A stretch of 64,000 nt of DNA, taken from the NCBI GenBank assembly GCA_016432425.1, contig CP066688.1:514619-578618 (forward strand). Reading direction: 5' to 3'. Source of the DNA: Candidatus Daviesbacteria bacterium (GTDB lineage Bacteria; Patescibacteriota; Microgenomatia; Daviesbacterales; UBA10151). A model generated the notes under the pieces. It searched no databases. It was given only the letters and a program-made list of their open reading frames with translations, and was not told where the DNA came from. The translations under genes and the position numbers were made by a program. Every line of letters starts with the position of its first letter. Positions within the stretch are counted from its first letter, which is position 1. Shown in pieces: positions 12,764-51,600 of this stretch.

Positions 12764-15331
12764 ATGAAAAAATATATTCCCCATGACATTGAACCTAAAT
12801 GGCAGCAAAAGTGGCAGAAGGATGCTCTCTACAGCGTTGACTTGGATAAATCTAAAAACCCCTATTATTTGTTAGTGGAATTTACTTATCCTTCCGGGGA
12901 TTTGCATATTGGTCATTGGTTTGCCTTTGCTGTGCCTGATATTTTAGGCAGGATGAAGAGAATGCAGGGGTTTACAGTGTTTTACCCTAATGGCTTTGAT
13001 GCTTTTGGGTTGCCCGCAGAAAATGCTGCCATCCAACGGGGTATTCATCCCAGAGATTGGACTTTGTCAAATATAGAAAATATGAAAAAGCAATTTTCCT
13101 TAATGGGGACCATTCATGATTGGGGAAATAGCGTCATTACTTGTCTATCAAACTATTACAAATGGAATCAATGGATTTTCTTAAAGATGTTGGAGAAAGG
13201 TTTGGCTTACAAAGGTAAAACTTTATCTAACTGGTGCCAGCATTGTCAAACTGTTTTGGCCAATGAAAATGTAGAAGCTGGTAATTGTTGGAGATGTCAT
13301 AATCCGGTAGTGCAAAAAGAGGTAGAACAATGGTTTTTAAAGATTACAGATTATGTCCAGAGGCTCCTTTGGGGCGAAGGTGGTAATGGGGTAGATTGGC
13401 CAAAAGCTCTGATGGAGGGGCAGAATAATTGGATTGGCAAAAGTCAGGGACAAGTGATTAAATTTGATGGCATTGAAGTGTTTACGACCCGTCAGGACAC
13501 GATTTTTGGGGCTACCTTTATCGTTATCAGTCCAGAACATCCACTGCTAAGTAAATTTGTTACATTTGAAAATAAAGAAAATGTCCAAAAATATTTAAAA
13601 TCCGTCCAGAAAAAGTCGGAACTGGAAAGAAAAGAAGAAAAAGTCAAATCTGGCGTTTTTACAGGTTCATTTGTGAGTAATCCCTTGACTGGTGAGCAGA
13701 TTCCGATTTGGATTGCTGATTATGTTTTGATGGGATATGGAACAGGGGCAATAATGGGAGTACCGGCCCATGACGCGCGGGACTTTGAATTTGCCAAAAA
13801 GTACGATTTACCTATAAAAACTGTTATCCAACCAGCGGGTCATACCGACTCACCGTCACCCGCTAATCAGGTACCAGATCAAGCCTACGTTTTGACGAAG
13901 TCAAAAGGCAAGGTTCTGCCAAAGGCAGGTTCTTATGATTTGACGAAGTCAAAAGGCAAGGTTCTGCCAAAGGCAGGTTCTTATGAAGGGGAGGGAGTTA
14001 TGGTAAACAGTGGTGAATATGATGGTATGAGTAGTAATGAAGCTCGGGAAAAGATATCAAACTATCTTGAAGAACATCATTTAGGTCAGAGAAAAGTTAA
14101 TTACCACCTCCATGACTGGTCCATCTCCCGTCAAAGGTACTGGGGTACCCCCATCCCCATTATCTACTGTGAAAAATGCGGCAGCGTACCGGTACCGGAA
14201 AAAGATCTGCCGGTGGAACTACCTTACGAAGTAGATTATCATCCTACCGGTAAACCGCCTTTGGCCACTAATGAGGCTTGGCTTAATGTGAAATGCCCTC
14301 GCTGTCTTGGTTCAGCCAAGAGGGACACTGAAACCATGGATACTTTTGTAGATTCATCCTGGTATTTCTTGCGTTATTTAGATAATAAAAATGACCAGGA
14401 AATTGTTAGTTCAAAACGACTCCGAACTTGGATGCCGATAGACATATATTTTGGCGGGGCAGAGCACACGCTGGGGCATACCTTATATTCCCGGTTTTTT
14501 GTGAAATTCCTAAAAGACATTGGAGTAGTGGATTTTGAGGAATATGCCAAAAAGAGAGTTAACCATGGAGTGATTTTGGGCTCGGATGGCTCCCGGATGA
14601 GTAAATCCCGGGGTAATGTGGTTAACCCAGATGAGCAGGTTCGCCAGTTCGGAGCAGATGCAGTCAGGTTATATTTAGCTTTTATCGGTCCTTATGATAT
14701 CGTTTCTCCTTGGAATCCATCAGCTATTAATGGTGTTTACCATTTTTTGCAAAGAGTTTGGTCGCTTTACGACAAAATAGCCTCGATCGGCAACAAGTTG
14801 TCGTCAGAAGACTTACGAATAATGCACAAAACTATCAAAAAAGTGACAGAAGACCTGGAGGATATTAAGTTTAATACGGCTGTGGCAGTTTTGATGGAGT
14901 GGTTAAACTACTTAAGTCGTAAGGAAAACGTGACCAGGGAAGAGTATAAAACTTATCTACTGCTCTTGGCCCCCTTTGCCCCTCATATTACGGAAGAACT
15001 ATGGTCCTTCGACAAAGTTTACACTGAGCGAACCTGTGGTGAGTGTAGTCGAACCAGTCGAAGTGCTCAGGATCAACAAATCTGGTCTATCCATCAGCAG
15101 TCTTGGCCTATCTTTGATAAACAATATTTAGAGGAAGCAGAAGTGGCTGTGATTGTCCAGGTCAATGGGCGGCTGCGGGATATTTTGATGATACAAAAAG
15201 ATATATTAAATGATAAAGAAGCTGTAGAAAAATTAGCTCGGGCAAGCCAAAAGGTGGCTAAATACTTAGATGGGCAAACTGTTAAAAAGGTGATTCACGT
15301 CTCCGGGAAACTAATCAATTTTGTTGTTTAG
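12764..15331 (+). CDS. leuS: Leucyl-tRNA synthetase.
   Basis: 855 aa. Class I HIGH (HIGH-like HIGHWF) and KMSKS (RMSKSRGN) motifs and LeuRS-typical editing/anticodon-binding regions. Contains a 70-nt in-frame repeat insertion at 15006..15075. Confidence 0.95.
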   Translation: MKKYIPHDIEPKWQQKWQKDALYSVDLDKSKNPYYLLVEFTYPSGDLHIGHWFAFAVPDILGRMKRMQGFTVFYPNGFDAFGLPAENAAIQRGIHPRDWTLSNIENMKKQFSLMGTIHDWGNSVITCLSNYYKWNQWIFLKMLEKGLAYKGKTLSNWCQHCQTVLANENVEAGNCWRCHNPVVQKEVEQWFLKITDYVQRLLWGEGGNGVDWPKALMEGQNNWIGKSQGQVIKFDGIEVFTTRQDTIFGATFIVISPEHPLLSKFVTFENKENVQKYLKSVQKKSELERKEEKVKSGVFTGSFVSNPLTGEQIPIWIADYVLMGYGTGAIMGVPAHDARDFEFAKKYDLPIKTVIQPAGHTDSPSPANQVPDQAYVLTKSKGKVLPKAGSYDLTKSKGKVLPKAGSYEGEGVMVNSGEYDGMSSNEAREKISNYLEEHHLGQRKVNYHLHDWSISRQRYWGTPIPIIYCEKCGSVPVPEKDLPVELPYEVDYHPTGKPPLATNEAWLNVKCPRCLGSAKRDTETMDTFVDSSWYFLRYLDNKNDQEIVSSKRLRTWMPIDIYFGGAEHTLGHTLYSRFFVKFLKDIGVVDFEEYAKKRVNHGVILGSDGSRMSKSRGNVVNPDEQVRQFGADAVRLYLAFIGPYDIVSPWNPSAINGVYHFLQRVWSLYDKIASIGNKLSSEDLRIMHKTIKKVTEDLEDIKFNTAVAVLMEWLNYLSRKENVTREEYKTYLLLLAPFAPHITEELWSFDKVYTERTCGECSRTSRSAQDQQIWSIHQQSWPIFDKQYLEEAEVAVIVQVNGRLRDILMIQKDILNDKEAVEKLARASQKVAKYLDGQTVKKVIHVSGKLINFVV
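15006..15075 (+). mobile_element. 70-nt interspersed repeat copy A, inserted in-frame inside leuS. 100% identical to copy B at 26865..26934 (opposite orientation).
   Basis: ccttcgacaaagtttacactgagcgaacctgtggtgagtgtagtcgaaccagtcgaagtgctcaggatca. It encodes ~20 extra residues (FDKVYTERTCGECSRTSRSAQDQ) between the conserved EELW and SIHQQSWP LeuRS segments. The termini are inverted (cttcgac...gtcgaag). Confidence 0.7.
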
Positions 15332-25673: not shown

Positions 25674-26867
25674 ATGGTAGCGGGTTTTGATGGATCCCGG
25701 GCTTTTGTAAAAAATCGGACCGGGACAGAAAATTATTCTTATCAGTTATTAAAAAACTTGGCCAAAATTGATCAAAAAAATCAGTATGTGGTCTATTTAA
25801 GACCAGGGAACGAGGTTAAAGAAAAGTGGCCCAGTAATTTTGAATTTAAGGTTTTAAATTATCCTCGTTTATGGACTCAAATAGGTTTGGCCAAACAAAC
25901 TTTTCAAGATAAATTAGATGTATTGTTTGTGCCAGCTCATACCTTACCCATTGTGAGACGTCCAGGCTTAAAAACTGTCGTGACCGTGCATGATTTAGGC
26001 AGTGAATTCCTGCCTAAAACCCATCAAATTAAGCAGAGATTGTACTTATCATTTATGCAGCAAGTACAACTTAAGGGCGCGACTAAGCTTATTGCAGTTT
26101 CCAAAGCTACCAAAAATGATTTAGTTCAAAAAATTGGTCTAGATCCAAAGAAAATAGAGGTAGTTTATGAGGGATTTGATAAAAACCTATTTAAACCAGT
26201 CAAAAACTTGTCCCGAGCGACTTATCCTGAGTTATATCGAAGGAAGTCGAGGGATGATGCACTAGTTAATAGTTTGAAACAGTTTGGATTAAGACCCAAA
26301 GAATATTTTTTATTTGTTGGAACAATTCAACCCAGAAAAAATCTAGAAAGACTAATTAAAGCTTTTGGCTTAATCGCTCGAAGACCTGTCGCTACGCAGC
26401 CCCGCTCCGCGCCACCCCTCACTACACGATTAGTCTTAGTTGGAAGTAAAGGTTGGTTAAGTGAGGAAATTTATGAACTGCCCAGAAAATTAGGAATTGA
26501 AAAACAAGTTAAATTTTTAGGTAGAGTAGATGATGAAGATTTACCAGCTTTGTATTCCGGAGCTATAGCCTTAGTTTTCCCTTCCCTTTTTGAAGGCTTT
26601 GGTTTACCCATTTTAGAGGCCCAAGCTTGCCAGGTTCCAGTGATTACCTCTAATTTGTCTTCTATGCCGGAAGTAGCTGGTCCGCCAGCTAGCGGAGGAG
26701 CCATTTTAGTTGATCCATACAGTGAAAAAGAAATTGCAAATGCTATGATAAAGGTAATAAATCCAAAAGTAAGAGCGGATTTAATAAAAAAAGGATTACA
26801 AAACTTGAAGCGTTTTTCCTGGGAAAAATGCGCCAGGGAAACTTTAAAGGTGTTATTGTCATCCTGA
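25674..26867 (+). CDS. GT4-family glycosyltransferase (GT-B fold).
   Basis: EX7E-type motif region FPSLFEGFGLPILEAQACQVPVI. The stop codon TGA is provided by the first 3 nt of repeat copy B. Confidence 0.8.
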   Translation: MVAGFDGSRAFVKNRTGTENYSYQLLKNLAKIDQKNQYVVYLRPGNEVKEKWPSNFEFKVLNYPRLWTQIGLAKQTFQDKLDVLFVPAHTLPIVRRPGLKTVVTVHDLGSEFLPKTHQIKQRLYLSFMQQVQLKGATKLIAVSKATKNDLVQKIGLDPKKIEVVYEGFDKNLFKPVKNLSRATYPELYRRKSRDDALVNSLKQFGLRPKEYFLFVGTIQPRKNLERLIKAFGLIARRPVATQPRSAPPLTTRLVLVGSKGWLSEEIYELPRKLGIEKQVKFLGRVDDEDLPALYSGAIALVFPSLFEGFGLPILEAQACQVPVITSNLSSMPEVAGPPASGGAILVDPYSEKEIANAMIKVINPKVRADLIKKGLQNLKRFSWEKCARETLKVLLSS

Positions 26868-26934
26868 TCCTGAGCACTTCGACTGGTTCGACTACACTCA
26901 CCACAGGTTCGCTCAGTGTAAACTTTGTCGAAGG
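26865..26934 (-). mobile_element. 70-nt interspersed repeat copy B, 100% identical to copy A in leuS, in reverse orientation. It forms the 3' end and stop codon of the GT4 gene and the intergenic spacer before the tagA-like gene.
   Basis: Reverse complement of 26865..26934 equals 15006..15075 at 70/70. Confidence 0.7.
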
Positions 26935-32277: not shown

Positions 32278-32507
32278 CCTTCGACTCGCTTCGCTCGCTC
32301 AGGACTATAGTACTAAAAAAGCGCCTTTCTGAGGCGCATGTAATAGAATAATGAATTATGAATTATTCATCATTCATATTGCTTTATTCTAATTTAAACG
32401 CCTCGGTGAGACTTATGCTTCGACTACGCCAAGTCTGACTTGGCTACGCTCAGCACTCACTGTCTTAAGCTAAAACATTGTAGCTTAAAGTTCTATATTT
32501 TGTCAAC
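32278..32507 (-). promoter_or_regulatory. rplJ 5' leader region (candidate L10-leader autoregulatory structure). Contains repeat-family fragments (ccttcgactcgcttcgctcgctcagg abutting the ATG, and cttcgactacgc...gctcagcactcactg) and an 8-bp hairpin gccaagtc-t-gacttggc.
   Basis: 230-nt untranslated region upstream of rplJ on the minus strand. The structure call is inferred. Confidence 0.35.
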
Positions 32508-35500: not shown

Positions 35501-37595
35501 ATTTATCATAAGTCGCCTTTAAATCATCCCTGCCTGCAAGATCCTCGGGTTTGATTAAGGAAATATCAATGCTTTCCGTTAAACTTTTTTCTCTTTGAGT
35601 CAAAGCTTCGGCATTGCTTTTCAGGGTGGGAGTTTGAGCCAAATCAGTCTGGACTGAGCGTAAAGTTTGCAACTCTTCTACCTTTCTCACCTCTACCAGT
35701 TGGTTATAATCTGAGGGAGAGGTAAATGTCTGGGTCTCATCCAGTTTTTTACTATCTGCCAAAGGAAAAGTATTTAACTCTACCAGTTTTCTGATTTTAC
35801 CTCTAACTTCTTCTCGAGAGGAAGAGTTGACTAGGTCTTGGGCTTCCTCAGGCAAAATCAACCCCTGGGTCTCCAGATCACCCAGGCGCGCTGAGAGTGC
35901 CGGAGGCAGAGCCGGATGATTCAAAACATCGGCGCTTCTGTCCATGGCATCCTCGGTTGCTTTAATGATTTCAACCACCAGTTTGGGATCATCAGTTGGG
36001 GTGGGCAGCAGGCCCTTTTCAAAGACTACTTCATGTCTGCCTGCAAGAGCTTCCAGTTTTTCCGCCACTATTTCAGCTGCTTTAGGGTTTTTGACTTCTT
36101 TAATAAGCCTGGAGGCCTCAGCCATGGTGGATTGGTAATTTTTAAGGGTAGATTGATAGAGGGAAGCTTTTTTAGGGTCTTGGGAAAGAGCTTGAGCTTC
36201 AGCCAGGCGTCGTTCAGCTTGCTGCATCTTGAGTTTGGCTTTTTCAGCGGCATCAAAAGTGAAGGTATAGGCAAGTCCTTCTCCGAAGCTTTTTATAATA
36301 TATGTAGGATCACCGGGTAAAGCTCCCACTGTATCTGTCAGATAAGGTTGGGCAGTAGGTCCGCCAGCTGGCGGAGTGGGAGATGGGGATGGGCTGGCTA
36401 CCACTGTGTTATCATCAGTTGTAGGAGTTGGTGACGGGCTAGGAGTGGGAGAGGGAGAAGGAGGAGGAACATAGGTAGGATTACTGGAGGCAGCCTGGGG
36501 ATAGAATTTAACCAGTTCTGTTTGTTGATCTGGGGAAAAATTTGTTAAATCTACTTCTTTGGCCAAATCCTGGGCCCGGTTATACCAAAGATACGGTTTG
36601 ATATCATTTGATGGGGTAACTTGGGGACTATCTTGCCATTTTTTTAACTCATCGACTATTTTAGTGTCAGGCTGGGGCAGGCTCTGATAGGACTTTAATT
36701 CCAACACCTGCAGGTTGGTTAAATATTGTTGGTGAATATCAGGAAACTTTTGGGCTACTGCCTCATCCAATTTGATTATTTCAGAGGGCGGGAGCTGGTT
36801 TGAGGAAGTCAGTTTGTCCAGTTCATCCCTAACTTCGCTTCGATTTTTGAGAGCATATAATTTATTGCTTTCTTCCTCCGAAATTAACCCTTGTTCTTTT
36901 AGTTTCTGGATACCTTCTGAGACTCCCTCGGGAATGGCAGGTTCACCCTGGGCCGTGGCAACTTGATCAAGAACTTCTCTGGTGGCTGAAACAGCCTGGG
37001 TCCAGGCTTCTGCTTGAGCAGGAGAAGAGCTCAAACTTAAATTAGTAGCTAATACTGTATGGACAGCAGCAGTTTCTTCCACCTTGTTAATTAGCTCCTC
37101 TGAGGCGGTATCAGTTCTTTGGGCCAAAGTGGCCAGATTTTGGCTGAGAGTTACTAAGGTTTGGCTGTAATCATCCAGGGCCGCTGATGCGGCAGTAACT
37201 TGACCTTTCTCCATCAAGGTTTTAGCCTCAGAGAGCCTTTCTGAGGCAATATCCAGTCTTAGAGCTTCTTTCCTGACCGGGTCAAAAGTGAAAGTAAGCT
37301 GGATATTTTCTACTGTTTTTTCAAAAGGATAAAGAAAGTTTCCCGGCAGAATACCGCTGGCTTGCGGGGGGATAATTCCATCAGGAATTTGAGGAGCAGG
37401 CAAATTCTCCAGATTGGAGAAGGAAAAACCTAAAACTTGAGAATTTCCATAATATGGCCCAAAGTCATAATATTGACTGTTTAAAGCAAAAACAGGGTTT
37501 GGAAATAAAATCCCTAAGGCAAGGATAAGGAAACTGAAGATAATTAGTAGCAGTGAAGATCTTTTTGGGCCAGCCATTTTCTGACCCGTCTGCAT
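32508..37595 (-). CDS. Giant secreted protein (1,695 aa). Signal/TM anchor, three DUF5667-like coiled-coil modules, Pro/Thr linkers, and a C-terminal array of Cys-rich repeats.
   Basis: N-terminus MAGPKRSSLLLIIFSFLILALGILFPNPVFA. Modules of type TFTFDPVRKEALRLDIASERLSEAKTLMEKGQ. Repeated CPSGYHWMSDSGGWCMSDG (x3) and YxC..G.YYSF...CVPY (x2). Confidence 0.8.
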   Translation of the reverse strand: MQTGQKMAGPKRSSLLLIIFSFLILALGILFPNPVFALNSQYYDFGPYYGNSQVLGFSFSNLENLPAPQIPDGIIPPQASGILPGNFLYPFEKTVENIQLTFTFDPVRKEALRLDIASERLSEAKTLMEKGQVTAASAALDDYSQTLVTLSQNLATLAQRTDTASEELINKVEETAAVHTVLATNLSLSSSPAQAEAWTQAVSATREVLDQVATAQGEPAIPEGVSEGIQKLKEQGLISEEESNKLYALKNRSEVRDELDKLTSSNQLPPSEIIKLDEAVAQKFPDIHQQYLTNLQVLELKSYQSLPQPDTKIVDELKKWQDSPQVTPSNDIKPYLWYNRAQDLAKEVDLTNFSPDQQTELVKFYPQAASSNPTYVPPPSPSPTPSPSPTPTTDDNTVVASPSPSPTPPAGGPTAQPYLTDTVGALPGDPTYIIKSFGEGLAYTFTFDAAEKAKLKMQQAERRLAEAQALSQDPKKASLYQSTLKNYQSTMAEASRLIKEVKNPKAAEIVAEKLEALAGRHEVVFEKGLLPTPTDDPKLVVEIIKATEDAMDRSADVLNHPALPPALSARLGDLETQGLILPEEAQDLVNSSSREEVRGKIRKLVELNTFPLADSKKLDETQTFTSPSDYNQLVEVRKVEELQTLRSVQTDLAQTPTLKSNAEALTQREKSLTESIDISLIKPEDLAGRDDLKATYDKLASENPSRPVNRGQFGAQPPAPTDAVLTTCPVGATFKSGEGCVWADTGKKLNDYEQYRCEGPGQYYSFAAKECVPYQKGQGFGEDASPICPAGYTWAWQSQSCQTKTGGITPLPTPTPTPGPGDSESCPQGSSYQASNGCVWDNNGKKVADSTDYNCKNNQYYSFSQFKCVPYPKPGEVSPNDFVPSCQDPNAYWSWSDGKCTWPKPIEGGIQEINIPQPTFVPPGNPLYFVKQWGEGLQRTFAFTPQASVEVRLAQAKERLAEAADALKKDDKAGVKAAITAYISMIQDTVADVSRENLSEGAKQEIAKGLSDGSVEQNLMLSKLSAWAKEEADEIIQAATSMPILVVDRAADVLGEPPIPDDVKAKIEGLPAEMISEEDKKKLLETSSRVEVRSTVGSLVSVGGLTSADTAFLNENFNNVEAKAVVPLEELSKLAEIADITDQKQEIDEKIGKNEDIVTKLGEFQKTFEPGQKIPAEIRPYVRLTRIEEVTQTIRPDIVKLEDFQNRKDVVLAVATLQEEFRPTRESFSQVAEFRRRNPNSPLPYDLARIEALSYSLGVRNQAGPCYLPTPPFPANTPCPAPGAAIPISSYYAQPTGGPGSVSYSVPTPSLDKDGKPLVYGQGPKAESAGVCPSGYHWMYDSGGWCMSDGGSYGSSYSYTPTGTGAGYTPYSPYYTAPGAPPASFGYPVGGSGYQPSPYSYVAPSYYGPAPSYYTTNPPAGTVPGSGPRPTAPGQCPSGYHWMSDSGGWCMSDGPTYVPSGSSTSSYPSGTGSYNYYSPNLNQSSCGPGYYWDGRGCIRTSPTDTYGSCTPPGGGCGTSAYWDYGSCSCRGSSTYYGGSGTSTGTSSCSPPAGGCGSGWFDSSSCSCKQASSQGCYNVSASSCGSGWYFDSAACTCRQSTSSSTSTSTTTSGGSTSSSGSCPSGYHWMSDNGGWCMSDGGGSTSTSTSTTTTSPSPSPTTTTTTEPTPTTSTSEPAPTTSEPAPAPSEPAPSPNP

Positions 37596-37732
37596 TTTAA
37601 GCTTAAAATAAACTTTTATTATTTGTCAAGTGCAGAGATTTTACAGATTTCCAAGATTATCCACTATTTGAATGGAGAGAATCCCAAGGTCAACCCCACC
37701 GCAAGAGTAATTTTCCACTTTATTATTATTTA

Positions 37733-39061
37733 TTATTTGCTCTGAGATGCTTCCATAAAGTCTGCCCTGATCCAGCCAATTTTAGGAGGATCAAAAGGAA
37801 GCCAAACTGTGGCCCAATCTCCGGTGTCAGTTTTAACTTGATAGTCCCATTTTGCCTCAACTTTGTACATATCTGTTGCTTCCTGGTAATGACGAAATAA
37901 CACTGTCTTTGGCCCTTCTAAAACTGTCACCCTCTCTCCATCTTCTACATAAGGTCTGGTTGGGTCTAAACCTGGCTCTGGTTTTTCTCTTAGTATAATC
38001 CCAAAATCATATCTATTTAATCTGGCAGCAGGGTCGAGTATGGTAGCATTCTCACCAGGAGCAAAATTCCTAATTTCTACAGGTATGCCGTATCGGGAAA
38101 TATCTACTCCCAGCCAATTTCTGACTATATCATATTCTGCTTGAGTAAAATAACCTTTTACTAGATTAGGTTTATCAGTGAGTTGTGCGTATAAAACCTC
38201 ATTTCTAAGCTCTGTACCATTAGTTAAAAATCTTCCCACCAGGGTTGTTAATATATAGTCAAGAGAGCGATCGTCCATCTGGGTGCCGATCAACCTTTTA
38301 TATTTATCAAAAAGATTATGATCATACCCATAATATCTGCCTAAGCTGTTCGCCATAGAATGACCCAGGACAATAGTGTCTTCATCTGCTGCCACATTAA
38401 GGTTATTAGGATCACTGCTAACTAAAGCTTTATGTGGTACCTTCTTGCCTTGTTGCTCCATAGTTTGGAGAGTAAGATGAAGTTGGGCTAAATTCTGCGG
38501 GGGAACAAAATAAGTCTGGTCCGGATTAATAAATGTTAATCTATCCCTTAGAGCTTGAATATATGGAGTAACTTGATAGCCGGTATATCCCAAATTAAAC
38601 TCTTGCCTAGTCTCTTGTTGGAAGTATTTTTCTTGTAAATGGCTTTCCACCAGGGCATTGACGTAGATTGCATCATTGGGGTTATTTATATCGGGTAACT
38701 GAGGTCCAGGAAATCTGGCGCTCAATCTAAGTTTTTGGCCATCAAAACGTAAAAAAGGGTCAGCAAAATTACTAAAAAAGTCTGCGAGTCTTTGTAATCT
38801 ATTAAAAGTCAGACTACCTTCATTGGGATTGGGCCTTATTTCTCGACCATAAGCTTGATAACCCAAGAGACGATATAATTCTTCGAGTTGAGTTGGTGTA
38901 ATAGAGGAATCTCTGACTATTTTGGGAGAATTATCTGGTTTATCAGCCAGTTGTACAATCGGGGCTGCTTTTTGAGCATCGTTAACTCCTAAATGCCAGC
39001 CTCCTAATATAGCTAGGGCGCTTATTGTTCCTGCCCCGATAGCTATTTTAGTTTCTTTATC
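37733..39061 (-). CDS. Hypothetical secreted/membrane-anchored protein with a C-terminal SH3-like segment. The ORF extends to 39193, but the Met at 39061 precedes the signal/TM.
   Basis: MDKETKIAIGAGTISALAILGGWHLG signal-anchor. C-terminus ...GDWATVWLPFDPPKIGWIRADF. Confidence 0.55.
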   Translation of the reverse strand, partial: DKETKIAIGAGTISALAILGGWHLGVNDAQKAAPIVQLADKPDNSPKIVRDSSITPTQLEELYRLLGYQAYGREIRPNPNEGSLTFNRLQRLADFFSNFADPFLRFDGQKLRLSARFPGPQLPDINNPNDAIYVNALVESHLQEKYFQQETRQEFNLGYTGYQVTPYIQALRDRLTFINPDQTYFVPPQNLAQLHLTLQTMEQQGKKVPHKALVSSDPNNLNVAADEDTIVLGHSMANSLGRYYGYDHNLFDKYKRLIGTQMDDRSLDYILTTLVGRFLTNGTELRNEVLYAQLTDKPNLVKGYFTQAEYDIVRNWLGVDISRYGIPVEIRNFAPGENATILDPAARLNRYDFGIILREKPEPGLDPTRPYVEDGERVTVLEGPKTVLFRHYQEATDMYKVEAKWDYQVKTDTGDWATVWLPFDPPKIGWIRADFMEASQSK

Positions 39062-39106
39062 CATTGACAGGATTGTATGGCACTTTGAACTGATAGTCAA
39101 TATAGA

Positions 39107-39138
39107 GACAAACATTACACGGCCGTGATACTTTTGTC
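39107..39138. promoter_or_regulatory. Family-2 palindrome GAGACAAACATTACACGG|CCGTGATACTTTTGTCTA (CGGCCG-centred), ~50 bp upstream of the 37733..39061 gene start.
   Basis: 21/22 identical to the site at 53264..53296 over ACGGCCGTGTAATRTTTGTCTC. Confidence 0.45.
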
Positions 39139-39989
39139 TACAAATCAGGCATCCACAACCAATAACCACCGGAGCGGGAAGCCTCCGGTCCACCCTGGGA
39201 CAAACCTCCGGTGGGAGTAGATTGCCAAACCCCGGATTGTCCGGTCGTTCCTAAGTTTTTAATAATGTAGGCTAAATCCGCGCTATTAATGATGCCATCT
39301 TTATTAAGGTCCACATTATCATTCCAATTATTGGAGGTAGTAGTGGTTCCATACAAACCTTTGGCAATGGCAAAATCAGCGCTATTGATAGAGTTATCAT
39401 CATTTAAATCTCCGCTAAGGAGAGTTAAGGCTTGGCCGGAGTTTAAATCAGTAGCGGAAGGGTTCAAAGTAAAAGCAGAAGAGGTGGCAATTTGGGCCGG
39501 GCCTTTAATATAAGCAGAATAGCCTGTGCCGGTAGTTAACCCGGCCATAGATAACCCGCTAAATAAACCACTGGCCGGTAAATCAATAGTAAAACTCAGC
39601 AAGTATTTAGGGCTGTTAACAGGGGAACCTTCAGCTATACCTACAAAAACTTTGGCTGTCTGGTTATTAGGAGGTCTACCTTCCAGAATTAATTTTAAAT
39701 TTAAGGTCGGGCCAAAAGAAATGGCAGAAGAGCTGGTAGATTCTTCTATTTTAGTTAATCCAGAGTCCGAATCTAGAGAGGAACTGGTGGCCACTTTTTG
39801 AGAGAGATTTTTTAAGGCATCTAAAGCAGAAAGATTAGCGGAGTTGGTAGCTTGTTTGGTCACCTTTTTGTCACTGGCTTTGGAGCTAACATTCTGTTGC
39901 TGAGAGGCCATGTAAGCTCCCAAAGGGATAGATAGGATTAAAAAAACATAAACAGCTAAAATAATCTTGTATTTAGTAGTTTGAAACAT
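39138..39989 (-). CDS. Secreted dockerin-domain protein.
   Basis: N-terminal signal anchor. Tandem dockerin-type Ca-binding repeats DLNDDNSINSADFAIAKGLYG and DLNKDGIINSADLAYIIKNLG. Confidence 0.6.
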   Translation of the reverse strand: MFQTTKYKIILAVYVFLILSIPLGAYMASQQQNVSSKASDKKVTKQATNSANLSALDALKNLSQKVATSSSLDSDSGLTKIEESTSSSAISFGPTLNLKLILEGRPPNNQTAKVFVGIAEGSPVNSPKYLLSFTIDLPASGLFSGLSMAGLTTGTGYSAYIKGPAQIATSSAFTLNPSATDLNSGQALTLLSGDLNDDNSINSADFAIAKGLYGTTTTSNNWNDNVDLNKDGIINSADLAYIIKNLGTTGQSGVWQSTPTGGLSQGGPEASRSGGYWLWMPDL

Positions 39990-40063
39990 AACTTCATTGT
40001 GTCAACAACTCTATTGTACATGGAATATTTGACTTTTGACAATTGAAAATTGACAATTGAATA

Positions 40064-41062
40064 ATGAAAATCCTCTGGCGGATCGCAGTTAATACTTTAA
40101 TTGGACTTTTTTTAATCTGGATCTGGCTAAAATTTGTAAATTTAGGGGAGATTGGGCAAATTTTATCGAAAATAGAGCTTCAATATTTAGGTTTAATTTT
40201 TCTGATGATGTTTTTATCACCGGCTATCCGGGCAGTCAGGCTCAAGTTTTTCCTCAAACCAGTTAAAAATTTACCGATTAAAGATTTAATCTTTTTAAAC
40301 GGCTTTGCCACCCTCTTGAATTTTGTTATTCCCCTTAGGGCAGGGGAGATTGCTAAAGGGGTTTATCTACAACAAAATTATGATTTGCCTTTAGGCAAGG
40401 CAGTAATTTGGATATTTTTGGATCGTTTTATTGATTTTTTAGTAATTTTGTTTCTTATTTCAATTTTTTCTTTTAAGATCATCACTAATTTACCAGATAA
40501 TTTTATCTTCATCTCCAGTTTACTTTTTATAGGAACTTTAACTCTAACTTATTTATTTATTTATAAATCAGGATTCTTAAGAAAAATCTTTCAATTTCTG
40601 AGCTATCTATTAATAGTGGGTATTATAAAGATATACTTTGAGCGGTTTCTCAATTTCTTAATTGAAACTTTTACCCTGTTAAAAAGAAAACCGGGGGAGA
40701 TGTTGTTATTTATTTTTTTAAGTGTACTGGCTTATGGGGTGGATGGCGCAATTTGGTATTATTCTTTTTTAAGCTTGGGCAGCTTACAGAATTTTGGCCA
40801 AATGTATTTTGGCCAGCTTCTATCAGCTTTAACTTATCTAATACCGGCTGCTCCTATGTATGTGGGTTCGGCTGAGGCTTCCGGGCTGTTAATTTTATCA
40901 GGTATATTGGGGATAAAACCTAGTTTAGCTTCCGCGATGATTATTTTATTGCATCTTTTAACAGCTGTTTTTGTTATAATTTTTGGTTTAGTTTCCCTCT
41001 ATCTGCTTAAACTGGATTTGGGGTTAATTTTAAAGAAAGCCTTAAAAAGAACTGAAATCTAG
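40064..41062 (+). CDS. Lysylphosphatidylglycerol-synthase-TM-like / flippase-like (UPF0104) membrane protein.
   Basis: 8 TM helices and family-like N-terminus (LGEIGQILSKIELQYLGLIFLMMFLSPAIRAVRLKFFL). Confidence 0.6.
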   Translation: MKILWRIAVNTLIGLFLIWIWLKFVNLGEIGQILSKIELQYLGLIFLMMFLSPAIRAVRLKFFLKPVKNLPIKDLIFLNGFATLLNFVIPLRAGEIAKGVYLQQNYDLPLGKAVIWIFLDRFIDFLVILFLISIFSFKIITNLPDNFIFISSLLFIGTLTLTYLFIYKSGFLRKIFQFLSYLLIVGIIKIYFERFLNFLIETFTLLKRKPGEMLLFIFLSVLAYGVDGAIWYYSFLSLGSLQNFGQMYFGQLLSALTYLIPAAPMYVGSAEASGLLILSGILGIKPSLASAMIILLHLLTAVFVIIFGLVSLYLLKLDLGLILKKALKRTEI

Positions 41063-41881
41063 TTTTACAGAGGGGCCCATGGTGGGGGCAAGAGAAACTT
41101 TGAGGATTTTGGATTTACCCAGCGTTTGCAGCAGGGTTCTAACATTGGCAGATAGTTCCTCGGTAGGTTGGTTTAATTTACCCAAAGCCAAATGGATGAT
41201 TGGGGATTTACTTTCTGTTTTAAATTCAGTTTTACCACCCTGGAAACCTTCTAGAGCTTTTTTCAGGTCATTAGTAATGGTGCCGTTTTTGGGATTGGGC
41301 ATTAAACCCCGGGGACCTAGGATTTTAGCAACTTTGGTAAGTTTAGCCATCCACTCCGGGGTAGTGACAATAATATCAAAATTAATCTGACCTTTTTCTA
41401 TCTGGGTAAGGGTGGAATCGTCACCAACAATATCCGCACCAGAGCTTGGAGCGTTCTTGCCAAAGGCTAAGACGCGAATTTTTCTGCCGGACGCAAAAGG
41501 CAAGGAGATCAAACCGCGAACGCCTGTCTGCGCCGTGATTATATGGGCCTCTAAGGATCCATTAAATTTAGAATAGGACAGTTTTTTGACCATGTCAACT
41601 GCCTCACTGACAGGATAGCTTTTGGAGCGGTCCAAGTCTTTGGAAATCTCCTGGTATTTTTTAGATCTGACTTTTTTTGAGGTTGGATGTTTGACTTTGG
41701 AAGTTGGTTTAGGAGGTTGGATATTAGAAGTTGGAGTTTCCACCTTCAAATCTCTAACTTCTTCATCTATTTTCTCATTTCCAACATCTAGCTTCTGTTT
41801 TGCAGAAGTTTTTTTCTTCTTAGCTTCCGGTTGTGAATCATCAATGATTTTAGTTTTTGTTTTTCCCATGGTTCGACTCAC
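41042..41881 (-). CDS. rplA: Ribosomal protein uL1 with an ~65-aa Lys-rich N-terminal extension. Start is GTG at 41881 or ATG at 41869.
   Basis: Core from RSKKYQEISKDLDRSKSYPVSEAVDMVKK matches L1. C-terminal L1 consensus is present. Confidence 0.8.
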   Translation of the reverse strand: MSRTMGKTKTKIIDDSQPEAKKKKTSAKQKLDVGNEKIDEEVRDLKVETPTSNIQPPKPTSKVKHPTSKKVRSKKYQEISKDLDRSKSYPVSEAVDMVKKLSYSKFNGSLEAHIITAQTGVRGLISLPFASGRKIRVLAFGKNAPSSGADIVGDDSTLTQIEKGQINFDIIVTTPEWMAKLTKVAKILGPRGLMPNPKNGTITNDLKKALEGFQGGKTEFKTESKSPIIHLALGKLNQPTEELSANVRTLLQTLGKSKILKVSLAPTMGPSVKLDFSSF

Positions 41882-41937
41882 TTCGTTCGCTCACCACAAG
41901 TTCTTGTCGAACCACCCTGAGCGATAGTCGAAGGGTT
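41870..41937. repeat. Interspersed-repeat family copy D. It fills the rplK-rplA intergenic spacer and abuts the rplA start. It shares modules with copies A/B, and its terminal 23-mer ccctgagcgatagtcgaagggtt matches 51380..51402 at 21/23.
   Basis: Direct comparison of words ggttcgact, ctcaccaca, cctgagcg, gtcgaaggg. Confidence 0.5.
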
Positions 41938-41951
41938 TTCCTTTCTTTATT

Positions 41952-42377
41952 TTAACCTATTTTTACTCCCATCGAACGGGCTGTTCCCTCCACAATTTTC
42001 ATGGCAGCTTCAATATTTTTGGTATTCAAATCCGGCATTTTAGCTTTGGCAATTTCTTCTACTTGAGCTTGGGAAATGGTACCTACAGGTTCTTTTAAAG
42101 CTTTGCCGGAGCCTTTTTCTAATTTGGCAGCTTTTTTGATCATTTCAGCCACCGGCGGCTCTTTAGTAATAAAAGAAAAAGTCCGGTCTTCAAATACCGT
42201 AATTACCACCGGTAAAATATCCCCCATGCGGTCTTTAGTCCGCTCATTAAAAGCTTTGACAAACTCCATGATAGGCAGCCCATGGGGGCCCAAAGCAGTA
42301 CCCACGGGGGGAGCAGCAGTAGCTGAGCCTGCCGGCACATTTAGTTTAATATAAGTTTTAATCTTTTTAACAGCCAT
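41952..42377 (-). CDS. rplK: Ribosomal protein uL11.
   Basis: 141 aa. PPVGPALG-type motif ([12 protein letters not shown]). Confidence 0.9.
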
Positions 42378-48242: not shown

Positions 48243-49307
48243 TTAAATCTTACTCCTAAAAAGAGCCTTGGCTTTTTCCAAATATTCCGGATGGCCTGCT
48301 TTAGCCATAAAATACCACCATTCCACTCCCCACAGGTAGGCGCTGTCAAAGCCGGTTTTCTCCGCAAATTCAATATTATCCTGCAAATCTTTAAGATTAA
48401 AAATTTTCGTTTGTTCCTCAATGGGGGTTTGAGTGACTCCTTTAAATAACCAGGGTTCAGCCTGGAGTTCGACAATAATGGTTTTTTTGTTTTGGGGAGC
48501 AAATAAATTTCTGACTAAAGCTGACTTGAGGGAATAAAAGATGGGCGGAAAGGGATAGGTAAAATCAAAATTAAAAGGGGTTTTAACTCTTCGATATAAG
48601 GTGGTGCCGAAAATATCAGATAATTTCATCGCTGTCACCCATGGCCTTAGTTCCCCGGAATCAGACAAAATAATGGGTTTTTGGCTGTAAGAGCGGACTA
48701 AGTCAACTTCTTTTTTAATAAATTCCCGGGAATCTAACTGACAGTTGCCAAAAGGTAACAGCGGTTCGTTTTCAATTTGAAAGGCGGCAATATTAGTAAA
48801 ACTCCGGTAATGCTTGACCGCCTCTTCTAACATGATGAGCTGGCGGCTTTGTCTTAAAGAGTTATTTTGGCTGTCCAGCCAGCCAGGGTAGTAACATTCC
48901 GGCCAGCGGGGAATTTTGTGGCCCAATACTAAGATAACTTGGGCCTGGTATTTGGCAGCTTGATTAATATAATAATCCAAATCTTCAAAATAAAATGGTT
49001 TCCCCTGAGCGCCTGCGGTGAGCGAACCTGTACTGAGTGTAACCGAAGTAGTCGAACTGGAGTCGAAGGGTTCAATTTCATCCCAATAAGCACTTAAACG
49101 GATATTTTTTACTTTGAAATTAGCTAAGATATCCTCAAAAGTGGCTGGGGGATCAAGATTTAGTTCTTTGGCATAGCGGGGGGAGAAAGATAGCCCCCAG
49201 GTAAGATCTTTTTTGACAGGAATGAAAACAGAGTAGGCAGTGCCCAGTAAATATAAACCCACCAGTAATAAGATTAAAGTCAAACTTAAGTTTAAAAGTA
49301 ATTTCAT
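48243..49307 (-). CDS. Secreted glycoside hydrolase, GH5/GH113-like (TIM barrel).
   Basis: NIRLSAYWDEIEP and catalytic-acid-like ENEP motifs. Signal peptide. Contains repeat-family copy C in frame. Confidence 0.65.
   Translation of the reverse strand: MKLLLNLSLTLILLLVGLYLLGTAYSVFIPVKKDLTWGLSFSPRYAKELNLDPPATFEDILANFKVKNIRLSAYWDEIEPFDSSSTTSVTLSTGSLTAGAQGKPFYFEDLDYYINQAAKYQAQVILVLGHKIPRWPECYYPGWLDSQNNSLRQSRQLIMLEEAVKHYRSFTNIAAFQIENEPLLPFGNCQLDSREFIKKEVDLVRSYSQKPIILSDSGELRPWVTAMKLSDIFGTTLYRRVKTPFNFDFTYPFPPIFYSLKSALVRNLFAPQNKKTIIVELQAEPWLFKGVTQTPIEEQTKIFNLKDLQDNIEFAEKTGFDSAYLWGVEWWYFMAKAGHPEYLEKAKALFRSKI
49003..49072. repeat. Interspersed-repeat family copy C (diverged), in-frame inside the GH5-like gene. 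It encodes the low-complexity peptide DSSSTTSVTLSTGSLTAGAQ.
   Basis: cctgagcgcctgcggtgagcgaacctgtactgagtgtaaccgaagtagtcgaactggagtcgaagggtt shares long words with copies A, B and D. Confidence 0.45.
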
Positions 49308-49314
49308 AACGTAG

Positions 49315-50237: not shown

Positions 50238-51541
50238 TGGTCCTTTTTCATAATATCTTTGAGCTCCGCTTCTACATCAATGCCGTGGCCCAGTAATTTT
50301 AATAATTTATGCTCAATCCCGTTATGTTTAATAATTTCCGCATACACTTTTGAAGAGGGTCGGGGAGTCCTTTTTTGGGTGGCAAAATCTACTTCCACCA
50401 GTCCAAACCGGGGTACGAAGCCGTCCGCCCATTCAAAATTATCAATCAAGCTCCAATGGAAATAACCCCTCACATCAGCCCCAGTTTGAATGGCATGGTA
50501 AATTTCTTTTAAATAAGAAATCAAAAAACGGACCCGCCGGTCATCATTGGTGGAAGCCAGGCCGTTTTCTGTAATATAAATGGGTTTGTGGTAATCAGAA
50601 AAGTCCATTAGCACATCAAAAATTCCTTCCGGATAAACTTCCCAACCCAAATCAGAAGTGTCTTTTTTGGTAGTGGCAATATCCACAAAAGAAGGAAAAC
50701 GGGAGTGAGTGTTAAAGCTCAAATATTGATTAAAATAATAATTTAACCCCAAGAAATCGTGAGTCTGTATGCCTGTCATCTGATAAAACAGGTGGTTGTT
50801 GATAATATCCAAAGCCCAGACGCCGATTTCTTCCCGCAATGAATGGTGATGGAAAGCATCAAAAGAGGAAACATTGTTGGCAATACCTACTTTAGCATTG
50901 GGAACAAGTTGGTGAATTGCCTTGTAGGCTTTTTTGTGGGCCCTGGCTAAATTCCAATAAACCCTGATTCCGGTGGGGAAACTCTTTTTTTGAGGAGGCC
51001 AAACCCCAATTAAGTAGCCCTGGAACATTAATACCCCTGGTTCATTAATAGTGATCCATAAATCTACATAGTCTTTTAATTCCGGTACTACCTTTTTGAC
51101 AAAGCGCTCGAATCTTTTTGGTGCCCCAAAACTTTCCCAGCCGCCTTTTTTGGCAAACCAGGCCGGGTTGGTAAAATGATGCAGAGTGAGCATGACTGTA
51201 AAACCCTGATCTTTTAAGGATTTAAGAACTTGTTTGTAGTGATCAATTTCGTTTTGGTTAAATTGGTCTTCCTCTGGTTCAATCCTGGCCCACTCCAGAG
51301 AGAGCCGGTGAGCATTATGGTTTAAGTCCTTAGCTAAAGCAAAATCTTCTGCATAACGATTATATTGGTCACAGGCTTGCCCTGAGCGTAAGTCGAAGGG
51401 TTGGTGATTTACTTCCCACTGCCACCAGTCACTGTACATGTTATTCCCTTCCACTTGGTAGCTGGAGGTAGCTGCTCCCCACAGAAAGCCTTGGGGAAAT
51501 TCTAATTGGGCATGGTCGTGTTTAGGCTCCGGAGTATCCAT
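50234..51541 (-). CDS. GH1 beta-glucosidase/beta-galactosidase.
   Basis: Catalytic motifs TINEPG (acid/base) and ITENGLA (nucleophile), plus NAHRLSLEWARIEP N-terminal signature. Confidence 0.85.
   Translation of the reverse strand: MDTPEPKHDHAQLEFPQGFLWGAATSSYQVEGNNMYSDWWQWEVNHQPFDLRSGQACDQYNRYAEDFALAKDLNHNAHRLSLEWARIEPEEDQFNQNEIDHYKQVLKSLKDQGFTVMLTLHHFTNPAWFAKKGGWESFGAPKRFERFVKKVVPELKDYVDLWITINEPGVLMFQGYLIGVWPPQKKSFPTGIRVYWNLARAHKKAYKAIHQLVPNAKVGIANNVSSFDAFHHHSLREEIGVWALDIINNHLFYQMTGIQTHDFLGLNYYFNQYLSFNTHSRFPSFVDIATTKKDTSDLGWEVYPEGIFDVLMDFSDYHKPIYITENGLASTNDDRRVRFLISYLKEIYHAIQTGADVRGYFHWSLIDNFEWADGFVPRFGLVEVDFATQKRTPRPSSKVYAEIIKHNGIEHKLLKLLGHGIDVEAELKDIMKKDH
51380..51402. repeat. 23-nt repeat-family fragment copy F (ccctgagcgtaagtcgaagggtt) inside the GH1 gene.
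   Basis: 21/23 identical to 41915..41937. Confidence 0.4.
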
Positions 51542-51600
51542 ATCTTCATATTAGGCTAGATTTTGTGCGCTGTAAAGCTTAGAGGTGTTATGATTAAATT

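Follow-up and report, generated by a model that had tools for sequence, protein, structure and literature searches.

A short hairpin-forming repeat unit, probably a selfish interspersed element, at ribosomal-protein junctions and inside protein genes of a Daviesbacteria genome

Small dispersed repeats of several kinds have been described in bacteria. The BIMEs of enterobacteria, known from the work of Gilson, Bachellier and Hofnung, are extragenic mosaics of small palindromic units in alternating orientation, in which REP types of E. coli and linker motifs stand side by side. The SDRs of Nostocaceae, reportedly described by Elhai and colleagues in 2008, are said to be mobile-looking repeats of about 20-30 nt with a conserved core and short variable inverted flanks, to insert within other repeats and hairpins, and to be restricted to cyanobacteria. 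The MIRUs, reportedly described by Supply and colleagues in 1997, are said to be direct repeats of 40-100 bp with small coupled ORFs, located in operon spacers where they touch stop and start codons. REP and REPIN sequences are mobilised by RAYT transposases (Bertels & Rainey 2011, PMC3116915; PMC5581495), and REPs are overwhelmingly extragenic, only 14 of 1,067 overlapping genes in SBW25 (PMC3116915). RPEs are palindromic elements found in frame in unrelated conserved protein-coding genes, where the encoded peptide is tolerated, and also at non-coding sites (PMC10969869; PMC1779305).

A preliminary description of the window analysed here, a 64-kb stretch of a Daviesbacteria genome, had reported repeat copies in the rplK-rplA spacer, the rplJ leader and two hydrolase genes, sharing short modules with a 70-mer. 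All of its sequences are present where it places them, and a regex scan of the window shows a single building block of 20-45 nt in the four loci and in two identical 70-mers. This unit consists of a variable closing stem of 3-4 bp, the conserved core TGAGCG...GTCGAA and a GNA triloop, with an inner helix that is optional. The two strands of the core, 5'-TGAGCG and GTCGAA-3', can pair through U:A, tandem G.A/A.G, G:C, a bulged U/T and C:G, and are topped either by a GNA triloop (short form) or by a further variable helix with a GAA or GNA cap (long forms); examples are a 20-mer, CCCTGAGCGAAGTCGAAGGG, and a 28-mer with a GCGAAGC apex. The closing stem of about 3 bp is Watson-Crick paired in 86-91% of cases, by several pair types, against 42-51% with partners shuffled, and the 3-bp flanks of the unit are inverted, not direct. 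Perfect stems of 4 bp or more, in 15 different sequences, are formed by 20 of 33 distinct inner segments, compared with about 13% of shuffled segments; the loops are mostly G-N-A triloops (GAA in 7 of the 20). Nearest-neighbour models, which do not score G.A pairs, give unremarkable energies for the folds (z about -2 to +1.4). The copies had been called modular and permuted. They are indeed composite, but their appearance is better described as nesting, in which hairpin units of either strand occupy the loops of others: the 70-mer and the composite in the GH-A gene of the window consist of nested units, and nesting as well as tandem arrays are also seen in external copies. The view that the loci are diverged members of one evolving family, and not the result of simple duplication, is upheld.

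Within 70 nt on the same strand, TGAGCG is followed by GTCGAA 13 times in the window, against 0.08 expected from 300 dinucleotide shuffles, and 8 core pairs are flanked by three or more Watson-Crick pairs, a combination that none of the 300 shuffles produced. A shuffled-sequence control had been named in the preliminary description as a test on which the family could fail; it returned essentially no matches. Chance matching of short G+C-rich words in an A+T-rich genome, to which the size of the modules (only 6-9 nt each) and the 16 further occurrences of TGAGCG alone in the window outside the elements might point, is refuted by this control and is left with virtually no probability, given also matches of 21/23 and 70/70 between copies and the recurrence of the window architecture in hundreds of external copies. 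As a short, imperfect, over-represented and dispersed palindrome, the unit resembles REP-type sequences in this respect.

The rplK-rplA spacer contains an inverted doublet. A long-core unit, GG-TGAGCGAACGAAGTGAGTCGAA-CC (41870..41895, minus strand), is sense to the rplK-rplA transcript and adjoins the rplA ATG (41869-41867); its 22-nt core pattern recurs in more than 120 genome stretches from many phyla. Its partner is a short unit, aCCC-TGAGCG-ATA-GTCGAA-GGGt (41914..41936, plus strand), antisense to the transcript. In the fold of the element, CUUCGACU.AUCGCUCA pairs with UGAGCGA..AGUCGAA. The 23-mer at 41915 (CCCTGAGCGATAGTCGAAGGGTT) matches that at 51380 (CCCTGAGCGTAAGTCGAAGGGTT) at 21 of 23 positions, as first reported. 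The element had been thought to fill the whole spacer, but the spacer measures 82 nt (41870-41951) and the element 68 nt; the AT-rich rest (41938..41951, minus strand), AAUAAAGAAAGGAA on the mRNA, is not repeat, and the rplK stop codon follows at 41952-41954. Another long-core unit, CC-TGAGCGAGCGAAGCGAGTCGAA-GG (32278..32303, minus strand, sense), lies between the leader terminator and the rplJ ATG (32277-32275) and matches the cross-phylum 22-nt core exactly. Both ribosomal copies end at the base immediately preceding the ATG on the minus strand, and the sequence directly upstream of the rplA and rplJ start codons thus consists of the elements themselves, in agreement with the earlier account. 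Abutment on a start codon is nevertheless not a property of the family, since only 2 of 331 units elsewhere lie at offset 0 from an ORF start, as at other offsets. A simpler explanation for the contact of the ribosomal copies with start codons is the near absence of non-coding space at both junctions.

A further segment of the rplJ leader, reported at 32421-32466, belongs to a repeat unit that spans 32415-32456 (GUGC-UGAGCG-UA-[GCCAAGUCAGACUUGGC]-GUA-GUCGAA-GCAU, minus strand); it was inserted at the tip of a hairpin that already existed and is not itself genuine leader sequence. The host region, at 32306..32487 (minus strand) upstream of rplJ, is very probably a Ribosomal protein L10 leader (RF00557), comprising the protein-binding hairpin and a terminator, and is to be distinguished from the repeat, which is the 31-nt insert in its apical loop. 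The match to RF00557 is full-length (39 bits, E 5e-5) with 31 inserted nt in this loop compared with 4 in the Rfam consensus, and because of this insert it scores just under the gathering threshold of 44.

Even the closest relatives compared share only about 65% protein identity. A conserved rplK-rplA spacer in relatives had been proposed as evidence against a mobile repeat; in fact 7 of 8 relatives lack the window sequence at this junction. Two (L003, L005) have unrelated AT-rich spacers, and in five (L006, L248, L250, L251, L252) the rplK and rplA genes overlap by 8 nt. Only L249 carries a unit there, different from that of the window. The element is therefore not a conserved L1-binding site or other conserved rplK-rplA structure, and no Rfam L1-leader match was obtained at this locus (E <= 10). 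The L10-leader hairpin lacks the insert in L006 and L251, whereas in L249 a different unit occupies the same apex, antisense where that of the window is sense. Occupation of these sites is recurrent.

About half of the window copies are found in genes, namely those for LeuRS, GH-A and GH1 and the 3' end of GT4. LeuRS (12764-15331, plus strand) contains a 70-mer of three nested units (15006..15075, plus strand) in frame between EELW and WSIHQQSWP, encoding SFDKVYTERTCGECSRTSRSAQD; 26 residues occupy this site compared with 5 in T. thermophilus, and LeuRS orthologues have SFD...AQD variants of differing length at the same place. In the GH-A gene (48243-49307, minus strand), a nested composite (49003..49070, plus strand, antisense) has CCC-TGAGCG...GTCGAA-GGG as its outer unit, and the centre of the loop of this unit holds a nested insert of 48 nt. 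The composite is translated as (P)FDSSSTTSVTLSTGSLTAGAQG(K), and the peptide from this copy reads PFDSSSTTSVTLSTGSLTAGAQGK. The protein, previously called GH5-like, matched no Pfam model, and its homologues carry PF02449, PF00150 or PF00331. It has about 24 extra residues relative to the closest homologues, the four closest having nothing at the insertion site; of the orthologues, L251 has an uninterrupted short unit there, and L252 and the window have differing nested inserts at the loop centre. The LeuRS and GH-A copies are true in-frame insertions, orthologues having no unit, a short unit or a different nested version at the sites concerned. In-frame copies are also present in other conserved proteins (YchF-like and YjeF-like, on metagenome contigs).

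The copies in the two hydrolase genes had been treated alike. That in GH-A is an in-frame insertion. In the GH1 gene (50234-51541, minus strand), by contrast, 21 nt have been replaced by as many, with no added length compared with two orthologues: the short unit gCCC-TGAGCG-TAA-GTCGAA-GGGt (51379..51401, plus strand, antisense) encodes PFDLRSG (PFDLRSGQ with the next residue) where the orthologous segment reads PSHLHSG or PLKQRSG. The second 70-mer (26865..26934, minus strand) is inverted relative to the LeuRS copy, 11.8 kb away and 100% identical to it (70/70), and because of this identity copying has been recent. The unit that surrounds it, GTCATCC...GGATCT, is older, and bases are duplicated at the junctions (TCCTGA-TCCTGA and GAAGG-GGAAGG). 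This copy of the 70-mer is upstream of a WecG-family gene (26957-27682), and the TGA stop codon (26865-26867) of the GT4 gene (25674-26867) falls within it. No target-site duplication or shared direct repeat is evident in the flanks of the two 70-mers.

The repeat family spans many phyla and is not specific to the Daviesbacteria genome. A core of 14-22 bases is found unchanged in many bacterial phyla, and occurs in Patescibacteria, Actinomycetota, Acidobacteriota, Bacillota, Bacteroidota, Planctomycetota and Alphaproteobacteria as well as on uncultivated viral contigs; the short unit is present in more than 120 viral stretches with a GC content of 0.31-0.73. On Sphingomonas plasmids the matches number 12-35 per plasmid, and those at the single locus inspected form an inverted pair. 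The core gave no match in 5,426 E. coli genomes or in cultured-phage records. No strand bias relative to transcription is seen, with 24 sense and 23 antisense copies between co-directional genes. At low-GC external loci, about 29% of copies are inside ORFs of at least 100 aa. An inverted partner lies within 120 nt of 82 of 375 units (about 22%), and 249 units are single. Contigs from short reads break exactly at the end of the element.

The core is described neither in Rfam nor in the searchable literature. Rfam 15 matched only the L10 leader in searches of both ribosomal loci (E <= 10) and of the unit-rich sequence L139 (E <= 1), and at gathering score it gave no match in 77 kb of viral and 141 kb of genome sequence from loci where canonical units abound. 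Peptide strings and 11-15-nt DNA strings of the unit matched only unrelated primers in the searchable literature, which held nothing relevant on Candidate Phyla Radiation repeats. The search for a mobilising enzyme was equally negative. No transposase, recombinase or nuclease domain was detected by Pfam in about 45 ORFs of the window, and no RAYT gene or IS is present within its 64 kb. When the ORFs lying up to 1.5 kb from units at 240 loci were clustered all against all, no recurrent family emerged, the largest being found at only 13 loci. The unit-rich Sphingomonas plasmids have no RAYT detectable by tblastn with E. coli RayT as the query, and one Chloroflexota RAYT is flanked by different repeats, beginning GTAGGGTGCGC.

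Several known structures were compared with the unit and rejected. A likeness to tRNA (GGTTCGAC and GCTCAG resemble T- and D-arm boxes) fails in that the order is permuted and there is no T-stem pairing. By inspection, the core reads CUGAGCG, not CUGANGA (...GAAA) as in the hammerhead, the 3-nt bulge of a K-turn is missing, and the basal pairing does not fit domain 5 of group II introns. A structured non-coding RNA or ribozyme would be at odds with the lack of a consistent strand and with the Rfam 15 results, and a MITE with the lack of direct repeats flanking the 70-mers, the absence of an IS from the window and the inverted 3-bp flanks.

On balance, the four loci and the two 70-mers are probably copies of a small, non-autonomous, hairpin-forming interspersed repeat of selfish nature. 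We infer that this repeat is mobile and acts as single-stranded DNA, copying being carried out either by a trans-acting enzyme, such as a hairpin-recognising HUH/Y1-type transposase, or by microhomology-driven template switching. Growth would take place preferentially at hairpin apices, whether of a unit already present or of a different structure such as the L10 leader, which would give rise to nested composites on alternating strands, and canonical copies may overwrite decayed ones. Because the unit lacks a stop codon in five of its six reading frames, proteins (LeuRS, GH-A, GH1) can accommodate copies in their surface loops or linkers. At rplK/rplA, they would have replaced an ancestral 8-nt gene overlap, and at rplJ a start codon standing directly after the terminator; the ribosomal copies may be passengers in the few non-coding bases available at both junctions. 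A broader proposal, which we put forward only tentatively, is that of an undescribed, horizontally spread class of miniature elements, whose conserved non-canonical fold (tandem G.A, bulged T/U, GNA loop) enters hairpin apices including its own. An enzyme acting in trans, or a repair pathway, that recognises this fold would drive such elements, which would remodel leader RNAs and protein loops in most bacterial phyla and in their viruses.

Several observations count against a selfish repeat: the window ORFs gave no mobilising domain, the 240 loci no recurrent protein family and the flanks of the 70-mers no target-site duplication, and the folding energies are unremarkable. A core that is identical between phyla, combined with helices that covary, also counts against it, as this would be expected of a selected functional structure. 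Indeed, a structured DNA or RNA element selected by the host, such as a protein-binding or structure-forming hairpin involved in mRNA 3' protection, genome organisation or replication, would have an invariant core and compensatory stems because selection keeps each copy, and the GNA/GAA loops, the conserved purine-rich strands compatible with tandem G.A pairs, and the occupation of the same ribosomal-protein junctions in the window and in L249 fit this explanation. It is nonetheless unlikely, given that orientation relative to genes shows no preference, that many copies lie within ORFs and antisense to them, that nesting and tandem arrays are typical of proliferation, that most relatives have no unit at any given site, and that the unit is wholly absent from E. 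coli and has no Rfam family. We consider still more improbable that the ribosomal copies are functional cis-regulatory RNA, either mimicking an L1- or L10-binding site or providing a translation-initiation element which the operon now needs. Three sense units (window and L249) lie 0-3 nt upstream of an rplA or rplJ ATG, the predicted AUG-proximal hairpin could draw an upstream AAAGGAA near the AUG, and the leader insert is predicted to lengthen the protein-binding hairpin. Against this, rplK-rplA is without a unit in 7 of 8 relatives and overlapping in five, the leader units of the window and L249 are oppositely oriented, the same units occur in ORFs and unrelated spacers, ORF starts are not enriched beside units elsewhere, and starts typical of the source genome follow AT-rich unstructured leaders without a Shine-Dalgarno motif; nor was an L1 leader recognised by Rfam. 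The copies in the ribosomal operon have the look of passengers that are tolerated there, not of a novel regulatory device.

The GH1 replacement counts against simple transposition, which does not predict it. Alternatively, no dedicated enzyme may be involved, and dispersed units would spread and be homogenised during replication or repair by microhomology-mediated template switching or gene conversion between them. In GH1, a weakly similar native sequence was converted to the canonical unit without change of length, the 70-mer at 26865 lies in an older unit with duplicated junction bases, composites are mosaic, and neither the window ORFs nor the 240 loci yielded an enzyme, all of which agree with such a process. 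However, it leaves unexplained both the invariance of the core across phyla and how a unit first reached a previously unoccupied site, for instance the apex of the L10 leader, and the homology available is very short (3-9 nt), so that we give this mechanism a low probability.

If the interpretation as a selfish, hairpin-forming repeat is true, a hairpin unit of 20 nt with an unaltered core has spread into genomes ranging from Patescibacteria to Actinomycetota and Alphaproteobacteria, enlarges itself by nesting within its loop, and is tolerated in essential proteins (LeuRS, YchF-like, YjeF-like) and in an autoregulatory ribosomal-protein leader. It would also account for a widespread class of unusual peptides (strings of the PFDSAQG, LSGVEG and LRSGQ type), for many of the small ORFs spuriously annotated in metagenomes, for some breaks in short-read contigs, and for sub-threshold Pfam and Rfam scores of invaded genes.

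The unit shares features with each of the systems described at the outset. As with RPEs, palindromic inserts are found in frame in unrelated conserved genes and also at non-coding sites. However, RPEs are about 100-150 bp long, A+T-rich and known from Rickettsia only, and are unrelated in sequence to the core, whereas the unit measures 20-45 nt (composites up to 70), has a G+C-rich core, nests in itself and occurs in many phyla. Small palindromic units are combined into mosaics of alternating orientation as in BIMEs, but here they nest in loops, and their core is absent from the 5,426 E. coli genomes. Like MIRUs, they occupy short operon spacers and touch neighbouring stop and start codons; unlike MIRUs, they are hairpin units and are also found inside genes. 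In size, in the combination of a core with variable inverted flanks, and in insertion into repeats and hairpins, the unit is similar to what is reported for SDRs, the sequences being different. REP sequences are lineage-specific, whereas the core of the unit is the same across phyla, and about half of the window copies and some 29% of those elsewhere lie in ORFs, so that the unit is not extragenic in the manner of REPs. The replicative unit of REPINs is the inverted doublet; here the rplK-rplA copy and the inspected Sphingomonas copy are doublets, but 249 of 375 units are single. In common with REP and REPIN sequences, the units are short, imperfect, non-autonomous palindromes present in many copies, which occur as singlets, inverted doublets and clusters arising by insertion into or next to existing copies, and for which recognition as single-strand hairpins is likewise proposed.

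Every locus of the repeat is built on one small unit, as revealed by a scan for its core with complementary flanks. In this unit, TGAGCG and GTCGAA enclose a variable middle and are themselves enclosed by the complementary strands of a short variable stem. Units in the window include acccTGAGCGataGTCGAAgggt (41914-41936), gcccTGAGCGtaaGTCGAAgggt (51379-51401), gtccTGAGCGagcgaagcgaGTCGAAggat at the rplJ start, ggTGAGCGaacgaagtgaGTCGAAcc at the rplA start and gtgcTGAGCGtagccaagtcagacttggcgtaGTCGAAgcat in the rplJ leader. The repeat sequences of the preliminary description were checked and are present where it placed them, the 23-mer pair with its 21/23 identity included, and its interpretation of the loci as members of one repeat family is right. 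Chance module matches, for which a shuffled-sequence control had been proposed, are excluded: TGAGCG followed within at most 70 nt by GTCGAA on one strand occurs 13 times in the window against 0.08 expected from 300 dinucleotide shuffles, and core pairs with at least 3 complementary flanking bases occur 8 times against none in 300 such shuffles. The "modular, permuted" make-up is real in appearance and is accounted for by nesting of one unit type on either strand, the 70-mer (15006-15075) and the copy in the clan GH-A hydrolase gene being units inside the middles of other units, in the same or opposite orientation.

The architecture of the unit was defined from about 380 external copies, collected from other genomes and viral contigs. 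The closing stem comprises 3, sometimes 4, base pairs: positions 1-3 are 86-91% Watson-Crick, with several pair types, compared to 42-51% with shuffled partners, and pairing is at background level from position 5. The middle is either 2 nt (NA, 136 cases), 10 nt (127 cases, mostly AGCGAAGCGA with GCGAAGC within) or a longer segment, usually with its own perfect helix (at least 4 bp in 20/33 distinct segments, compared to about 13% of shuffled ones). These inner helices represent 15 different sequences, mostly closed by G-N-A triloops (GAA in 7/20) and surrounded by linkers of the form xA...GxA. The GNA...GNA linkers beside inner helices may be structural, or may be 3-nt target duplications. 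From the conserved letters, from which the non-canonical pairs are deduced, we infer a fold in which the stem would be followed by U:A, tandem G.A/A.G, G:C, a bulged U/T and C:G; above these would lie either a GNA loop or another G.A/A.G step leading into a helix capped by a GAA loop. Folding energies are unremarkable; standard energy models leave non-canonical pairs unscored. A possible decayed unit, tATCC-TGAGTTATATCGAA-GGAag, was noted within the GT4 gene (about 26222-26250), where it encodes YPELYRRK.

Several observations are evidence for recent copying. The 70-mer at 15006-15075 has an inverted counterpart of 100% identity at 26865-26934. This second copy sits in an older GTCATCC...GGATCT unit, with junction bases duplicated, and contains the TGA stop codon of the GT4 gene. 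Short-read contigs L001 (1-1249) and L002 (1-972), which are independent and come from different sequencing runs, break off at precisely ...GAGTCGAACCAT, where the repeat ends (window position ~41868), as expected at a repeat boundary; their last k-mer is probably repeated elsewhere in their samples.

The window, part of a Candidatus Daviesbacteria (Microgenomates/Patescibacteria) metagenome-assembled genome, carries secE-nusG-rplK-rplA on its minus strand, followed after about 9 kb of other genes by rplJ-rplL. The GH1 gene, an EamA transporter and the GH-A hydrolase lie near the ribosomal genes, with LeuRS and a GT4/WecG pair further left. The segment between rplA and rplJ (32508-41062) encodes an LPG-synthase-like membrane protein, a dockerin-domain protein, a 486-aa ORF and a 1,695-aa DUF5667 protein, and this interruption is in part common to relatives.

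Both ribosomal copies reach up to the base immediately preceding the ATG (rplA, 41869-41867; rplJ, 32277-32275; minus strand), as had been claimed. This abutment is real, and probably a consequence of limited space. In five relatives (loci L006, L248, L250, L251 and L252) rplK and rplA overlap by 8 nt, and one to two bases separate the rplJ ATG from the preceding terminator T-run in L249 and L251. With no ancestral rplK/rplA spacer and a rplJ ATG close to the terminator, any surviving insert must touch the ATG. An ORF start at offset 0 was counted for 2 of 331 external units, which is no more often than at other offsets. A conserved L1-binding structure in orthologous rplK-rplA spacers, the alternative named in the preliminary description, is not what is seen at the relatives' junctions: besides the overlaps, the spacers of L003 and L005 are AT-rich and unrelated, that of L003 with a good Shine-Dalgarno sequence, and a unit is found there only in L249 (gtcATCC-TGAGCGACCGAAGGGAGTCGAA-GGATtt-ATG), with a stem different from that in the window. 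The L10 leader, region 32306-32487, aligns to RF00557 with 39 bits (E 5e-5), below the gathering score of 44, and has 31 nt in place of the 4 of the consensus loop. The leader is a plain hairpin in L006 and L251, and that of L249 has a 61-nt insert at the same apex, containing a different unit in opposite orientation. In the predicted fold of the window leader, the inserted hairpin is stacked onto the helix of the leader and the terminator is retained; in that of the rplA region, the AUG lies at the foot of the doublet hairpin, within a small bulge. A Shine-Dalgarno-like motif precedes only about 9 of 48 ORFs in the window. Most starts come after AT-rich leaders, and TATAAT is often found 5-20 nt upstream of them, an arrangement suggestive of leaders that are very short or missing. 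Relative to these usual leaders, rplA and rplJ, each with a G+C-rich hairpin in front, have atypical initiation regions. The best reading of the ribosomal copies is that of tolerated passengers rather than of a conserved regulatory structure.

Protein-coding sites were compared with their orthologues. At the GH-A site (gene at 48243-49307, minus strand), the four closest homologues (66-67% identity, BLAST) read ...IEP-K(A/E)(G/N)QFDF... without insert, and homologues P0127 and P0128 have PLDSAQG or PLDSVQG. Locus L251, which encodes P0127, carries an uninterrupted, slightly decayed short unit, CCCCTTGACTCCGCTCAGGG; in P0126 (L252) and in the window, this same outer unit is interrupted at the centre of its loop, in each case by a different nested insert. 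In LeuRS (12764-15331, plus strand), 26 residues occupy the site at which T. thermophilus has 5, between EELWH and SLFEAGWP, and Daviesbacteria orthologues have SFDFSSTSLTAGAQD, HFAEASRD, DFAEASSD or short unrelated linkers there, which fits an old short unit with decay in some lineages and expansion in others. The GH1 gene (50234-51541, minus strand) has the same length as two orthologues at the unit site, with CCCTTCGACTTACGCTCAGGG in place of CCCTCTCATCTTCATTCAGGC (L248) or CCACTCAAGCAGCGCTCTGGC (L251); the Pyrococcus enzyme already has P-Y-RSG-KAC at this position. The GH1 copy is thus a replacement of weakly similar, or decayed, sequence by the canonical unit, or its conversion into one. 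Three metagenome contigs also contain the inner module of the 70-mer, GAGCGAACCTGTNNTGAGTGTA, which is further evidence for recent copying. Two of these contigs (L254 and L255) have it in-frame and antisense in genes for a YchF-like GTPase and a YjeF-like kinase/dehydratase, with ...PSITLRTGSL... added to otherwise conserved regions.

In external loci of at most 0.50 G+C, 24 copies between co-directional genes are in sense and 23 in antisense orientation. Of the 87 copies classified, 25 fall within ORFs of 100 aa or more, and 19 of these 25 are antisense. This balanced orientation, together with the presence of copies in ORFs, argues for an element acting at the DNA level and against a strand-specific RNA function. 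The sense strand has TGA in one reading frame and the remaining five frames are open, which fits the persistence of copies inside genes.

Other features of the window were also noted. Paralogous 172-aa proteins with a winged-helix domain and a PaaX-type Cas2-like domain are encoded at 21813-22331 and 52746-53264, with tRNA genes next to each. One paralogue has 34-36-nt palindromic repeats (AGACAAAT..TACGGCCGT..ATTTGTCT) on both sides (52693-52726 and 53262-53297), and these occur again 14 kb away (39105-39140). A conserved leader motif, TTATGAAGGGRACCTTCTA(A/G)TT(A/T)CATT, which includes the small palindrome GAAGGGRACCTTC, directly precedes the ATG of LeuRS (12706-12766, in tandem), the GH-A gene (49304-49332, minus strand) and ORF 51626-52327 (51593-51628). 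The 3,497-aa protein encoded at 1149-12210 (minus strand) carries two MerR-type HTH domains at its N-terminus and is followed by an Avd-like (23S_rRNA_IVP) protein, a pair that recalls diversity-generating retroelements; no reverse transcriptase was seen in the window. The 200-aa nucleoside diphosphate kinase (20382-20984) matches Pfam NDK in two stretches and its gene does not contain the repeat core, suggesting a different type of internal insertion.

The unit is by no means restricted to this genome: it is a member of a family that spans phyla, has an invariant core and covarying helices, and nests in its own loop. This lies outside the frame of the preliminary description, and is the more interesting result. 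The short form CCCTGAGCNNNGTCGAAGGG was found in at least 120 stretches of uncultivated viral contigs (G+C 0.31 to 0.73), and the 22-nt long core TGAGCGARCGAAGYGAGTCGAA, although expected to be private to the Daviesbacteria lineage, in at least 120 stretches of species-representative genomes. Among the matches listed for the latter are Lachnospiraceae, Oscillospiraceae, Acidobacteriota, Planctomycetota, Verrucomicrobia, Gemmatimonadota, Myxococcales, Bacteroidota, Microbacterium and Leucobacter isolates, Saccharibacteria, Parcubacteria, Roizmanbacteria, Babeliales and Omnitrophota. Sphingomonas plasmids have 12-35 matching places each, and the one such locus looked at features an inverted unit pair between operon genes. 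The core was not found in 5,426 complete E. coli genomes or in cultured-phage records. Besides dispersed single copies, tandem arrays with ~20-nt spacers were observed (L139, L217, L165 and L220; a Coriobacteriaceae MAG, Microbacterium candidum and others). As to a mobiliser, no transposase-like domain was detected in the ~45 window ORFs, no protein family recurs near units, and none of the unit-rich Sphingomonas plasmids yielded a RAYT; the repeats on either side of a Chloroflexota RAYT are different ones, beginning GTAGGGTGCGC.

Translated strings of the unit are familiar as annotation noise. No Rfam 15 family matches the unit, no paper with its sequence or peptide strings was found in the literature searched, and we know of no formal description. 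It fails defining features of each element class compared. Cyanobacterial small dispersed repeats resemble it in being tiny and in nesting. Unlike a MITE, it has neither terminal inverted repeats nor target-site duplications. In its in-frame insertion into conserved genes it is closest to Rickettsia palindromic elements (PMC10969869), but its size and sequence are wrong for these. In its hairpin units, doublets, clusters and non-autonomy it is closest to REP/REPIN sequences (PMC3116915), but it is neither extragenic nor lineage-specific, and a RAYT link was not found.
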